Assembly (NCBI RefSeq): GCF_044324875.1
Contig: NZ_CP172185.1
Source: Escherichia coli
GTDB taxonomy: Bacteria > Pseudomonadota > Gammaproteobacteria > Enterobacterales > Enterobacteriaceae
Strand: one strand, 5' to 3'
Length of the DNA stretch: 64,000 nt
Below the pieces are notes generated by a model that was not told the DNA's origin, did no database searches, and worked only from the letters and a program-made list of their open reading frames with translations. This document shows, piece by piece, positions 22,208 through 25,443 of this stretch. A program made the translations under genes and the position numbers. Numbering within the stretch: position 1 is the stretch's first letter; each line of letters opens with the position of its first letter.

Positions 22208-23032
22208 TTAAAGCAGTAGCGGTAGGGTCGCGCTGGCTGTTTTCTGGCTCACCTCGCTGTACTGGTCATCCAGCGCAATCAGCGATGTGGTGAGTAGCTC
22301 TACCAACAGCATCACTCCCACTTTGGCAGTCAGCGCGCCGGCACTCAAGGGTCCTTCCGGTTTGGCCGCGACCAGTTGAATATCACTCAGCGAAGCTAAC
22401 GGACTGCGCGGTGTATTACTCAGCGCCAGTACACGCACACCTTGCTTACGCGCTAGTTTTACGACATGCAGCAGATCGCGCGTGGATCCAGAACTGGAAA
22501 TCGCCACCACGAACGTGTTTTTACTAAGTGTTGTGGCGTTCATGGCAGCACGATGCATATCGCTGAACAATTGTGCGGGTTTCCCCAGACGCAGGAGTTT
22601 ATAATGTAAATACTCCCCCAGAATGGCACTGGCTGCTACGCCATAAATCTGCACTGACTGAGCCTGATGCAGTGCAAGCGCGGCTGCTTCCAGCAAGGCT
22701 CTGTCGAGTAATTTTGCTGTGTCCTGTATTGCTTGCACGGATTCATTGACCACATTGTCAATCTCATCACCGCCGTGCTCTACAAACTGTACTTGTCGGA
22801 GATCGAGTGCCAGCGCCATTTTGAATTCGTTATAGCCCTTACACCCAAGCGTTCGGCACAGACGTGTGACGCTAGCCTCGCTGGTGCCGCTTTCACGCGC
22901 AAGTTCGGTAATCGTCAGGTAGACAACTTTTGCCGGATCGCTAAGTACAAACTCTCCCAGCTTCTGTTGTGTTCGGCTATATCCATCAACGCTCTGGCGC
23001 AATCTCAGCAGCAGGTTTTCATTTTCTGACAT
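22208..23032 (-). CDS. RpiR/MurR-family transcriptional regulator (HTH plus SIS domain)
   Basis: 274 aa; N-terminal HTH (LTITELARESGTSEASVTRLCRTLG) and SIS-like C-terminal region; divergent from the PTS operon. Confidence 0.8.
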   Translation of the reverse strand: MSENENLLLRLRQSVDGYSRTQQKLGEFVLSDPAKVVYLTITELARESGTSEASVTRLCRTLGCKGYNEFKMALALDLRQVQFVEHGGDEIDNVVNESVQAIQDTAKLLDRALLEAAALALHQAQSVQIYGVAASAILGEYLHYKLLRLGKPAQLFSDMHRAAMNATTLSKNTFVVAISSSGSTRDLLHVVKLARKQGVRVLALSNTPRSPLASLSDIQLVAAKPEGPLSAGALTAKVGVMLLVELLTTSLIALDDQYSEVSQKTASATLPLLL

Positions 23033-23197
23033 GTAAAATCCTTAATGCGTTTATCTGTTGATAGTGTGACGGAAAGGAGGGGATTGATGCCAGACATTTT
23101 AAAAAAGTATGATCGACTTCTTAGATTTTGATGGTGATTTTTATTTATAAGAATAATTATGGTAAAAATTTTCATCAAAAATCGAGGAGATGATAAA

Positions 23198-24754
23198 ATG
23201 ATGCAAATGTTTAGCGGCGCTTCATCGGGGGGATGGTTTGAAAAAGCGCAGCGGTTCGGAAAATCCTTCATGCTGCCGATTGCGGTATTGCCCGCAGCAG
23301 GGCTGTTATTAGGGATTGGTGGCGCGTTGTCAAATCCAAACACGTTGACGGCTTATCCGTTTTTAGATGCCGACTGGTTGCAGGCAATATTCACAATCAT
23401 GACCAGCGCAGGTTCTATTGTGTTTGCCAACCTGTCGGTACTCTTTGCAGTCGGCGTCGCCGTGGGGCTGGCGAAATCGGATAAAGGCACTGCCGGGCTT
23501 GCGTCATTGCTGGCGTTTCTGGTGATGAATGCCACCATCAACGCCTTATTAACGCTCAACGGAACGCTGGCGCACAAGAACCCCGCTTCAGTTGGCCAGG
23601 GGATGACGCTTGGTATTCAGACACTGGAAACTGGTGTGTTTGGTGGGGTGGTGATTGGTCTCGTCACCTGCACTTTACATAGCCGTTTCAATAAAGTCTC
23701 ACTACCTCAGTTTCTCGGTTTTTTTAGTGGTTCTCGTTTTGTACCCATTATCAGCTCCCTTGCCGCGATAGTAGTGGGTGCGGTTATGACGGTGGTGTGG
23801 CCGCATTTCCAGAAACTCATTTTTGGACTGGGCGACCTGGTGGATGCGACGGGCTATCTGGGGACGCTGTTGTACGGCTTCATCCTGCGTATGCTCGGTC
23901 CACTGGGTTTACACCATATCTTTTATTTGCCGTTCTGGACGACGGCGCTGGGCGGCAGTGAAATCGTCAACGGCCAGTTGGTTGAAGGTACGCAGCGGAT
24001 TTTCTTTGCCCAACTTGCCGATCCGAATACGCAGCAGTTCTACGCGGGTACCGCTCGCTTTATGTCCGGGCGCTTTATCACCATGATGTTTGGCCTGCTT
24101 GGCGCATGTCTGGCAATGTACCATACTGCAAAGCCGGAGAATAGAAAGGTTGTCGCCGGACTACTTTTGTCGGCAGCCCTGACCTCTTTCCTGACGGGAA
24201 TCACTGAGCCTGTTGAGTTCTCCTTCCTGTTTGTCGCGCCCGTATTATACGTAATTCACGCCTTCTTCGATGGTCTGGCGTTTATGGTCGCCCATATTTT
24301 ACATATCACTATTGGGCAAACCTTTTCGGGCGGGCTTATCGATTTCCTTCTCTTCGGCGTGTTGCAGGGGGAAGCTAAAACAAACTGGATGTATGTCCCC
24401 ATAGTGGGAATACCGTGGTTCTTCCTTTACTACTTTACTTTCCGCTATTTGATTAACCGCTTTGGCTGGCTGACGCCGGGGCGTGAGAACGTAACCCAGG
24501 TTGAATCCGGCCAGCCTCAGAGTGAACGCGCAGCGGCAGTCATTGCCGGGCTGGGAGGCAAAGAGAATCTGGAAGAGGTGGACTGTTGCGCCACGCGCCT
24601 GCGCGTGACGGTTAAAGAGAGCAGTAAGGTAGATGAAGCTGCGCTGAAAGTGGCCGGAGCGCGTGGCGTGATTATTCGCGGCAACGGCGTTCAGGTGATT
24701 TATGGCCCTCATGTCACCATCATTAAAAACGAAGTCGAAGAGATTTTATCGTAA
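23198..24754 (+). CDS. PTS glucose-family EIICB component
   Basis: Polytopic EIIC followed by C-terminal EIIB with phosphorylation-site cysteine ([10 protein letters not shown]); AGGAGA Shine-Dalgarno before ATG 23198; track ORF starts at 23159. Confidence 0.8.
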
Positions 24755-25443
24755 TGAAAACTGTACTGGATTCCCTGAAAGGTAAATTAATCGTCTCCTG
24801 TCAGGCTCTGGAAAATGAGCCTCTACATAGTCCGTTTATTATGTCACGTATGGCGCTGGCGGCAGCACAAGGTGGTGCTGCAGGTATCCGTGCCAACAGC
24901 GTGGCGGATATTAGTGCTATCAAAGAGATTGTCTCCCTTCCGATGATAGGGATTATCAAACGCGATTACCCTGGCAGTGAGGTGTTTATCACGGCCACTC
25001 TCCGGGAAGTGGATGAGCTGATGACCGTTGAGCCGGAAATTATTGCCCTGGATGCTACTGCGCGCCCGCGCCCTGGTGGTCAGACGCTGGAAGAACTGGT
25101 CACGCAGATCCGCGCTCGCTACCCGTCCATACTTCTGATGGCAGATATAGCAACAGTAGAAGAGGCAGTGACAGCTGAACGTCTGGGTTTTGACTGTGTG
25201 GGCACTACGCTCTACGGCTATACCGCAGAAACTGCCAGGCATGTGCTGGCGGAAAATGACTGTGGATTCTTACGTGAGGTCCTGAAAGCGGTCAGCGTTC
25301 CGGTCGTGGCGGAAGGGAATGTCGACACCCCGGAGTGCGCCGCACGTTGCCTGACATTAGGCGCTCATACCGTGGTGGTTGGGGGGGCAATCACTCGTCC
25401 GCAGCAGATAACGACACGCTTTATTGCAGCGATCGCCTCGTAA
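24754..25443 (+). CDS. nanE: N-acylglucosamine/mannosamine-6-phosphate 2-epimerase (NanE family)
   Basis: 229 aa, [48 protein letters not shown]...; start overlaps the PTS stop. Symbol denotes family membership, not necessarily the nanATEK copy. Confidence 0.8.

Follow-up and report, generated by a model that had tools for sequence, protein, structure and literature searches.

A three-gene regulator, permease and NanE cassette in a mosaic island of Escherichia coli with a predicted role in the use of free N-acetylmannosamine

Positions 22208 to 25443 of a 64-kb stretch of the Escherichia coli contig NZ_CP172185.1 (assembly GCF_044324875.1; the whole stretch is referred to as the window, and all positions are given in its numbering) encode an RpiR-family regulator with a SIS domain and, divergent from it, a phosphotransferase system (PTS) permease of the EIICB type followed by a NanE-family epimerase. 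We favor the hypothesis that these genes form a mobile, self-contained cassette for the use of free N-acetylmannosamine (ManNAc), in which ManNAc would be imported by the PTS permease, the product would be epimerized by NanE, and the operon would be derepressed by ManNAc-6-phosphate (ManNAc-6-P). The protein families involved are well known and the pathway logic is conventional; that is, the locus is an uncharacterized example of a PTS-linked amino-sugar catabolic cassette. Gene calls were taken from a six-frame list of open reading frames (ORFs), and proteins were assigned to families by Pfam and NCBIfam profile searches against curated cut-offs.

The regulator gene (22208-23032, minus strand; 274 amino acids, HTH_6 plus SIS domains) is separated by a 165-bp divergent control region (23033-23197) from the EIICB gene (23198-24754, plus strand; 518 amino acids), which encodes a Glc-family PTS protein predicted to transport and phosphorylate ManNAc, and the EIICB gene is followed on the same strand by the epimerase gene (24754-25443; 229 amino acids, Pfam NanE and NF002231). 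The ORFs at these coordinates and their domains bear out the original prediction, made from the letters of the sequence, of an RpiR-family regulator divergent from an EIICB-nanE pair. The proposal in the same prediction that a stop and a start codon share one base, as in a coupled operon, also stands: the junction reads TCG-TAA-TG-AAA, with the TAA at 24752-24754 and the ATG at 24754-24756 having base 24754 in common, and the pair is tightly coupled. The two genes overlap or almost abut in E. coli, Citrobacter, Serratia, Aeromonas, and Peribacillus, and each of the three proteins aligns over its full length with its homologs (i.e., pseudogenes, 0/3). Although the longest EIICB ORF in the six-frame list runs from 23159 to 24754 (plus strand; 531 amino acids), the true start is probably 23198 (or 23201) rather than 23159, because a GAGGAG Shine-Dalgarno sequence sits just 5' of 23198, RefSeq gives a 518-amino-acid product on identical DNA, homologs span 517-519 amino acids, and the ATG at 23159 falls within a conserved operator-like palindrome (below).

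Homologs of nanA, nanK, nanT, and nanQ were absent from the window (tblastn, E <= 1e-3), and the locus does not have the canonical nanATEK-yhcH organization, in which nanE is found with nanA, nanT, and nanK under a GntR-type NanR. The canonical nanE was found in 5409 of the 5426 complete E. coli genomes, and carrier strains therefore have two NanE paralogs, 41% identical to each other. Hence, the earlier reading of the locus as a distinct accessory pathway, based on the missing nanA/nanK/nanT partners, holds.

The island NanE is very probably active as an epimerase of ManNAc-6-P and N-acetylglucosamine-6-phosphate (GlcNAc-6-P), judging from its family scores and its active-site residues. It matched the Pfam NanE family (PF04131) over residues 30-228 with 233.8 bits against a cut-off of 27 (E 1e-69) and NF002231 with 316.1 bits against a cut-off of 189. 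It is of the Firmicute-like type, being 62% identical to the characterized Staphylococcus aureus NanE (SaNanE) vs. 41% to the K-12 NanE, and is far closer to the S. aureus (E 1e-78) and C. perfringens (1e-74) structures than to those of Salmonella (NanE2, 3igs; ~1e-37) and Vibrio (1e-30). In SaNanE, the active site consists of Gln11, Arg40, Lys63, Asp124, Glu180, and Arg208, each of which has been mutated; Gly181, Asn182, Gly203, and Gly204 contact the phosphate, Tyr149 touches the acetamide methyl, and the signature motifs of the family are x-P-x-I-G-I-x-K-(basic) and V-G-x-A-x-T-R (PMC8482478). All 12 active-site and phosphate-binding residues are retained in the island protein: Q17, R46, K69, F78, D131, and Y156 correspond to SaNanE Q11, R40, K63, F72, D124, and Y149, and E187, G188, N189, G210, G211, and R215 to E180, G181, N182, G203, G204, and R208. 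Both motifs are present as well (LPMIGIIKR, residues 62-70; VGGAITR, residues 209-215), and at the acetamide contacts, K69 and Y156, the protein does not differ from the ManNAc-6-P enzyme.

The EIICB protein consists of a PTS_EIIC domain (PF02378, E 1e-88) followed by a PTS_EIIB domain (PF00367, E 2e-15) and can be aligned over its whole length with E. coli PtsG, its nearest solved structure (E 1e-107). The catalytic motifs, i.e., GITEP at 334, HH at 239-240, and Cys465 in CATRLR, align with their PtsG equivalents. The original prediction was said to fall if the epimerase lacked its catalytic residues or the transporter was a pseudogene; neither is the case, since NanE retains all of the residues and EIICB is intact with its GITEP, HH, and phospho-cysteine motifs. 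No EIIA domain was detected in the protein by Pfam, nor is a Glc-type EIIA gene annotated within +/-20 kb. PtsG and MalX are charged by EIIA-Glc (Crr), and, on general PTS knowledge, an EIICB without an EIIA of its own should therefore be charged by Crr too.

With respect to specificity, EIICB scored below every specificity-level NCBIfam cut-off tested, whether for glucose (TIGR02002, glcB, 587.2 vs. 591.8; PRK11089, 421 vs. 647 bits), maltose (TIGR02004, malX, 482.2 vs. 632.2; PRK10110, 481.8 vs. 665 bits), or N-acetylglucosamine (GlcNAc; TIGR01998, nag, 444.6 vs. 553.2; PRK10255, 287.4 vs. 1010 bits). The RefSeq name "maltose/glucose-specific" is thus a generic label, because all specificity scores fall under the cut-offs. 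On balance, we lean toward ManNAc as the substrate based on the genomic context, because NanE is the sole enzyme in the operon and consumes ManNAc-6-P, to our knowledge in the only known reaction of this enzyme, and because glucosamine-6-phosphate (GlcN-6-P) and GlcNAc-6-P would have no need for NanE. The retention of this nanE by Cronobacter species without nanAKT (PMC3716653) is a further point in favor.

The regulator has an HTH_6 domain (PF01418, residues 6-78, E 9e-19) and a SIS domain (PF01380, residues 121-248, E 3e-19). Its best solved relative is the Vibrio vulnificus NanR (VvNanR; 4IVN, E 1.5e-68, residues 3-273), to which it is 44% identical over 272 residues, i.e., over its full length; the next structures matched far more weakly (RccR 5e-32, MurR 2e-17), and the protein scored far under the AlsR, MurR, and HexR equivalog cut-offs (for MurR, 85 vs. 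408 bits). VvNanR, which was crystallized with ManNAc-6-P, is described as a repressor that binds two adjacent sites and whose affinity for DNA is lowered by the effector (PMC12713135, PMC9177960). The relationship to this Vibrio-type NanR therefore points to ManNAc-6-P as the signal. In MurR, the phosphate of the ligand is contacted in the SIS domain by S146, H171, S190, and S192 (PMC9177960), and the same Ser/His/Ser/Ser set is kept here, based on inspection of motifs, in GVAAS at 131 (S135), DMH at 158 (H160), and SSSGST at 179 (S179-S181), which line up with GVGAS, DTH, and VSSSGS of VvNanR. It is likely that the regulator controls the local operon; by analogy with VvNanR, ManNAc-6-P is the predicted effector and repression, rather than activation, the predicted mode.

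The control region is consistent with such a role. It contains promoter-like hexamers on the plus strand (-35 TTGATG, 23128-23133; -10 AATAAT, 23152-23157), and an 18-bp palindrome, consensus TGaTnAAAATTTTnAtCA, occurs in it twice. The distal operator-like site, O1 (23129-23146, TGATGGTGATTTTTATTT), overlaps the -35 hexamer, is degenerate in the allele of the window, and forms an inverted repeat with the O2 region, while the proximal palindrome, O2 (23160-23177, TGGTAAAAATTTTCATCA), is situated 3' of the -10 hexamer and 5' of the Shine-Dalgarno sequence. O2 differs from the palindromic consensus at 1 position; elsewhere in the window, a single match occurs, at 16869, with 3 mismatches. The control region shows conserved blocks within otherwise diverged intergenic sequence when compared across E. 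coli, Citrobacter, Cronobacter, Serratia, and Aeromonas: O2 is almost invariant in the first four and recognizable in Aeromonas, and both the offset between O1 and O2 (31-32 bp, about three helical turns) and their distance to the start codon are constant from E. coli to Aeromonas. The placement of these predicted operators around the promoter is typical of repression. Inspection of the control region by eye revealed weak CRP half-sites but no convincing CRP site.

Under the hypothesis that we favor, EIICB would import ManNAc and phosphorylate it at C6 to ManNAc-6-P, drawing the phosphoryl group from the general PTS proteins and, presumably, from EIIA-Glc (Crr). NanE, made from the same transcript, would then invert C2 of ManNAc-6-P to give GlcNAc-6-P, which the core enzymes NagA and NagB would turn into fructose-6-phosphate. 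The NanR-like protein would repress the operon at the two palindromes bracketing the promoter until binding of ManNAc-6-P to its SIS domain released it. Such a cassette would bypass NanT, NanA, and NanK as well as the induction of the canonical nan operon by N-acetylneuraminic acid (Neu5Ac).

Several known systems share parts of this architecture. The closest functional analog is STM1127-STM1131 of Salmonella enterica, an accessory, horizontally acquired cluster, separate from nanATEK, that is induced by ManNAc and needed for good growth on it (PMC11745405). Like the cassette, it has a MurR/RpiR-family regulator, in its case a repressor, and a second NanE (STM1129) and lacks nanA (PMC11745405); unlike the cassette, it takes up its substrate through a sodium-solute symporter (STM1128), so that a kinase is still required, whereas EIICB would yield ManNAc-6-P directly, and it carries NanM-like and NanC-like genes and the 3' untranslated region small RNA (sRNA) ManS. 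The lmo2795-nanE operon of Listeria monocytogenes also joins an RpiR regulator, a PTS, and NanE without a sialic-acid lyase, and its NanE is required on ManNAc, but it comprises seven genes, with separate EIIA and EIIBC, a ROK protein, a HAD hydrolase, an oxidoreductase, and an activating regulator (PMC10667646). In the nan operon-I of Streptococcus pneumoniae, SP1685-SP1684 (nanE-nanP) places nanE beside an EIIA-less Glc-family EIIBC, and the RpiR-family NanR binds ManNAc-6-P (PMC12713135, PMC3302838); here, however, nanE precedes the PTS gene, NanR activates, and the genes belong to an extensive sialic-acid regulon that also includes ABC transporters, nanA, and nanK. The pneumococcal NanP was considered as a precedent for a ManNAc PTS and rejected, its reported phenotype being on glucosamine (PMC3302838).

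The resemblance to VvNanR extends to an RpiR-family regulator divergent from the operon it controls and to the two adjacent binding regions reported (PMC12713135, PMC9177960), although the VvNanR regulon is a full sialic-acid cluster (TRAP transporter, nanA, nanE, nanK, and nagA) while the regulon presumed here is the PTS permease and NanE only. The closest architectural analog within E. coli is murR/murQP, where an RpiR/SIS repressor is divergent from a two-gene operon, encoding a sugar-phosphate enzyme and a Glc-family EIIBC without EIIA, whose promoter has two operators overlapping it (PMC9177960, PMC12713135), the differences being the substrate (N-acetylmuramic acid) and the enzyme (the MurQ etherase). 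Finally, K-12 has its own route through ManXYZ and NanE, from PTS uptake to ManNAc-6-P to GlcNAc-6-P (summarized in PMC10667646). That route, however, relies on a broad-range mannose-family PTS and on a nanE that sits in the nan operon, repressed by NanR and released by Neu5Ac (PMC11745405), whereas the island NanE has its own regulator.

The association of the three genes is conserved well beyond E. coli. EIICB followed by nanE, together with an accompanying RpiR/SIS gene, was found in 10/10 genera examined, and EIICB homologs of 75-96% identity always adjoin nanE in the contexts examined. Close homologs occur in Citrobacter (96% identity), in Raoultella and Cronobacter (84-89%), and also in Pantoea, Serratia, Sodalis, and Aeromonas; those of the Firmicutes Selenomonas and Peribacillus share about 75% identity. 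In Selenomonas, the gene order is nagB-nagA-EIICB-nanE-DUF386 (YhcH/NanQ-like)-ROK kinase-RpiR, a context that ties the EIICB-nanE pair directly to amino-sugar and sialic-acid catabolism. The ratios of nonsynonymous to synonymous substitution rates (dN/dS) between E. coli and Citrobacter are 0.07 for the regulator, 0.04 for EIICB, and 0.09 for NanE, i.e., the three genes are under purifying selection. A 702-amino-acid "hypothetical protein" of the plant Cichorium endivia (P0093) unites EIIC, EIIB, and NanE domains and shares 87% identity with the island EIICB; it is most likely bacterial contamination of the plant assembly, a single gene model having been built over the two overlapping genes.

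Citrobacter and Cronobacter carry the cassette in the chromosome, between eno and queE, and positions 22185-25529 of the window align with the Citrobacter eno-queE locus at 89% nucleotide identity. The homology begins at 22185, inside the eno terminator, with the G+C stem and T-run in common (a terminator-like site lies at 22174-22190), so that the left edge of the module (22185-22207) appears as a remnant of the donor eno/regulator terminator region. It ends at 25529, 16 nucleotides into queE (L013 8318-8333), the right edge (25514-25529, plus strand) being the first 16 bases of the donor queE (ATGCAGTTCCCGATTA), and is followed by an insertion sequence (IS) fragment from 25530 to about 25700. 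On this alignment, the island cassette is a captured piece of the eno-queE locus of a Citrobacter-like bacterium. Regarding the deeper history, transfer of the whole cassette from Firmicutes was considered and rejected: the Firmicute neighbors are 47-60% identical to the E. coli cassette in NanE vs. 25-27% in their RpiR regulators, and even Peribacillus, with EIICB at 75% and NanE at 60%, has a regulator at 25-27%, compared to 44% for the Vibrio NanR. The proteobacterial cassette is therefore a mosaic in which a Vibrio-like NanR accompanies an EIICB-NanE pair of Firmicute type. The assembly GCA_013386025.1, labeled Pseudomonas reactans, has the order pyrG-eno-cassette-queE-queD-cysJ, as in Citrobacter and Cronobacter; this gene order is enterobacterial, and the label therefore looks doubtful.

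About 9% of complete E. coli genomes carry the cassette, in three alleles, and the three ORFs are intact in 468 of 481 carrier genomes. The first allele, with at least 99% nucleotide identity to the window, was found in 146 genomes in the island seen in the window; the second (~96%) in 311 genomes in a different IS-flanked island (e.g., O104:H4), where its match reaches the same right-hand end of the query; and the third (~87%) in 12 genomes at the native site beside an intact queE (e.g., LHM10-1). The 3.4 kb with the cassette recur at 100% identity in many E. coli chromosomes such as those of the avian pathogenic E. coli (APEC) strains IMT5155 and O2-211. In the chicken isolate GPEC1258 (NZ_CM142782.1, 1442093-1446559), an IS903B is inserted within the cassette-matching stretch, an instance of ongoing IS disruption. 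Carriage on plasmids was also observed: close matches in Enterobacter ludwigii and Pantoea piersonii are annotated as plasmid-borne, 2-5 of the E. coli matches lie on plasmids, and a metagenome scaffold of the Pantoea agglomerans type (L020 2498-8557) has the cassette beside psiA, psiB, and ssb, which are leading-region genes of conjugative plasmids. Given the plasmid-borne matches, the cassette travels on plasmids too.

Several observations weigh against the use of free ManNAc as the function of the cassette or against parts of the mechanism outlined above. First, there is evidence from two other nanE-linked PTSs: S. pneumoniae SP1684 mutants are slowed on glucosamine, with ManNAc uptake ascribed to ABC transporters (PMC3302838), and deletion of the PTS of the Listeria nanE operon left growth on ManNAc unimpaired (PMC10667646). 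Second, EIICB misses the glucose cut-off only narrowly, and its sequence may thus be compatible with glucose or glucosamine transport. Third, the RpiR regulator of the Listeria nanE operon (PMC10667646) and the pneumococcal SpNanR (PMC12713135) are activators. Fourth, O1 of the window allele has 5 mismatches to TGATNAAAATTTTNATCA, compared to about 3-4 at this position in Citrobacter, Cronobacter, and the other E. coli alleles and 1 in Serratia, and no canonical intrinsic terminator was found 3' of nanE. Finally, no experiments on the cassette or on a close EIICB homolog were found in the literature searched. With respect to the original prediction of an N-acyl amino sugar as the substrate, the general reading is supported, whereas the substrate itself is drawn from context alone, and the SP1684 analog gave a glucosamine phenotype.

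Alternatively, EIICB might carry glucosamine, GlcNAc, or glucose, with NanE serving as an extra epimerase for ManNAc-6-P supplied by ManXYZ or NanK, and the module as a whole acting as an amino-sugar booster. We regard this as unlikely, though it is the most serious of the alternatives: the pneumococcal EIIBC beside nanE is induced by GlcNAc (PMC5110562) in addition to its glucosamine growth phenotype (PMC3302838), the Listeria PTS is dispensable on ManNAc (PMC10667646), and PtsG is the nearest solved structure of a protein that almost reaches the glucose-specific cut-off. However, GlcN-6-P and GlcNAc-6-P need no NanE, yet EIICB and nanE are translationally coupled and linked in all 10 genera, and the regulator resembles a sensor of ManNAc-6-P, not NagC or a GlcN-6-P sensor. 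Further, the SP1684 phenotype is small (generation time of 56 vs. 46 min).

A role for the module in the metabolism of a related N-acyl-mannosamine (e.g., N-glycolylmannosamine from N-glycolylneuraminic acid) or in the anabolic supply of ManNAc-6-P for a surface polysaccharide appears improbable. While the sequence leaves substrate specificity undefined, the island alleles are present in strains from animal and human hosts, and the NanE reaction is reversible (PMC8482478), the acetamide contacts K69 and Y156 are the same as in the ManNAc-6-P enzyme, glycosyltransferase or capsule genes adjoin the cassette in no genus examined, and a PTS permease implies catabolic uptake. Also improbable is that the cassette is passive cargo of a decaying mosaic island, not expressed or not useful in E. 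coli, as the IS fragments and pseudogenes around it, the truncated queE at its right edge, the degenerate O1, and the presence of ManXYZ and NanE in E. coli might suggest, given the intact ORFs in nearly all carriers, dN/dS of 0.04-0.09, two diverged island alleles (>=99% and ~96%) that are both intact, and the preservation of O2, the Shine-Dalgarno sequence, and the promoter-like hexamers. Hence, we favor the use of free ManNAc as the function of the cassette.

Should this function hold, about 9% of sequenced E. coli, including avian-pathogenic, extraintestinal, and O104:H4 outbreak lineages, carry a compact, mobile ManNAc route that does not depend on the sialic-acid regulon, whose signal in E. 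coli and Salmonella is Neu5Ac and not ManNAc, and a substrate could be assigned to a widespread EIICB clade that is mislabeled "maltose/glucose-specific". Free ManNAc, under the scavenging scenario, would come from the sialate lyases of other microbes or from bacterial glycans. The separate ManNAc cluster of Salmonella alters competitive behavior during infection (PMC11745405), and the cassette would therefore be a plausible determinant of niche fitness. It is tempting, but in our view doubtful, to go further and propose that the EIICB family is the first in the glucose PTS family with an Enzyme II dedicated to ManNAc and that it lets extraintestinal pathogenic E. coli (ExPEC), APEC, and O104:H4-type strains scavenge free ManNAc without induction by Neu5Ac, as a colonization-fitness module like STM1127-31.

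The cassette also accounts for an older puzzle. Cronobacter species without nanAKT still retain nanE (ESA_00529), which has been treated as an unexplained, "separately located" gene, and orphan nanE genes have been cited for Citrobacter freundii and Edwardsiella as well (PMC3716653). The Cronobacter orphan nanE (PMC3716653) is explained by our comparisons, since the gene sits in the same type of cassette, and that of C. freundii is probably the same case.

Downstream of nanE, a hairpin (25472-25499, plus strand) with a perfect 12-bp stem and a 4-nucleotide loop, GGAATAAGCGAT-AATT-ATCGCTTATTCC, starts 28 nucleotides past the stop codon. The RNA of 25444-25513 folds with -24.8 kcal/mol (z = -4.1), and the palindromic core of the hairpin, GCGATAATTATCG, is common to Citrobacter, where the stem is weaker. 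Lacking a T-run, the hairpin was not classed as an intrinsic terminator; it may be a transcript end, a protein-binding site, or a queE leader element. Rfam yielded nothing for the window as a whole at gathering thresholds, nor for 22000-26000 at E <= 1, and the idea that the locus is the E. coli counterpart of the Salmonella ManNAc cluster with its ManS sRNA was rejected on this empty result and the different transporter type.

The cassette sits in an IS-ridden mosaic island with pseudogenes, and no tRNA gene that might mark an insertion site was found in the window. Other cargo of the island includes an autotransporter, TonB-dependent receptors (including ireA), an orphan ugpB, a phytase-like protein, a c-type lysozyme inhibitor, a YadA-like adhesin, and a split transketolase with an ascorbate-type PTS. 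The ugpB gene (17897-19213, encoding a glycerol-3-phosphate binding protein) has no ugpAEC partners, is followed by a frameshifted IS110 transposase, and appears to be a stray piece of a transport operon. Directly upstream of the cassette and outside the segment shared with Citrobacter, 20708-22051 encodes a 447-amino-acid "esterase-like activity of phytase" protein (PF13449, E 7e-61) with a signal-peptide-like N-terminus and no NCBIfam match. On the other side, a virulence-type cluster adjoins the cassette, encoding a c-type lysozyme inhibitor of the PliC/MliC family (25948-26286), a 151-amino-acid protein with only a sigma-70 region-4-like helix-turn-helix (26643-27098), and a YadA-like trimeric autotransporter adhesin (27160-28473). 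From 29646-30599 and downstream (L011 27674-32929), a transketolase split in two genes is co-oriented with ascorbate-family PTS IIC, IIB, and IIA genes; identity with the published APEC "tkt1 island" was rejected, since the latter differs in gene content and is located between metE and ysgA. The split-transketolase/PTS set is divergent from a LacI regulator, and an Asc-type PTS with a LacI regulator is also found near the ~96% allele of O104:H4.

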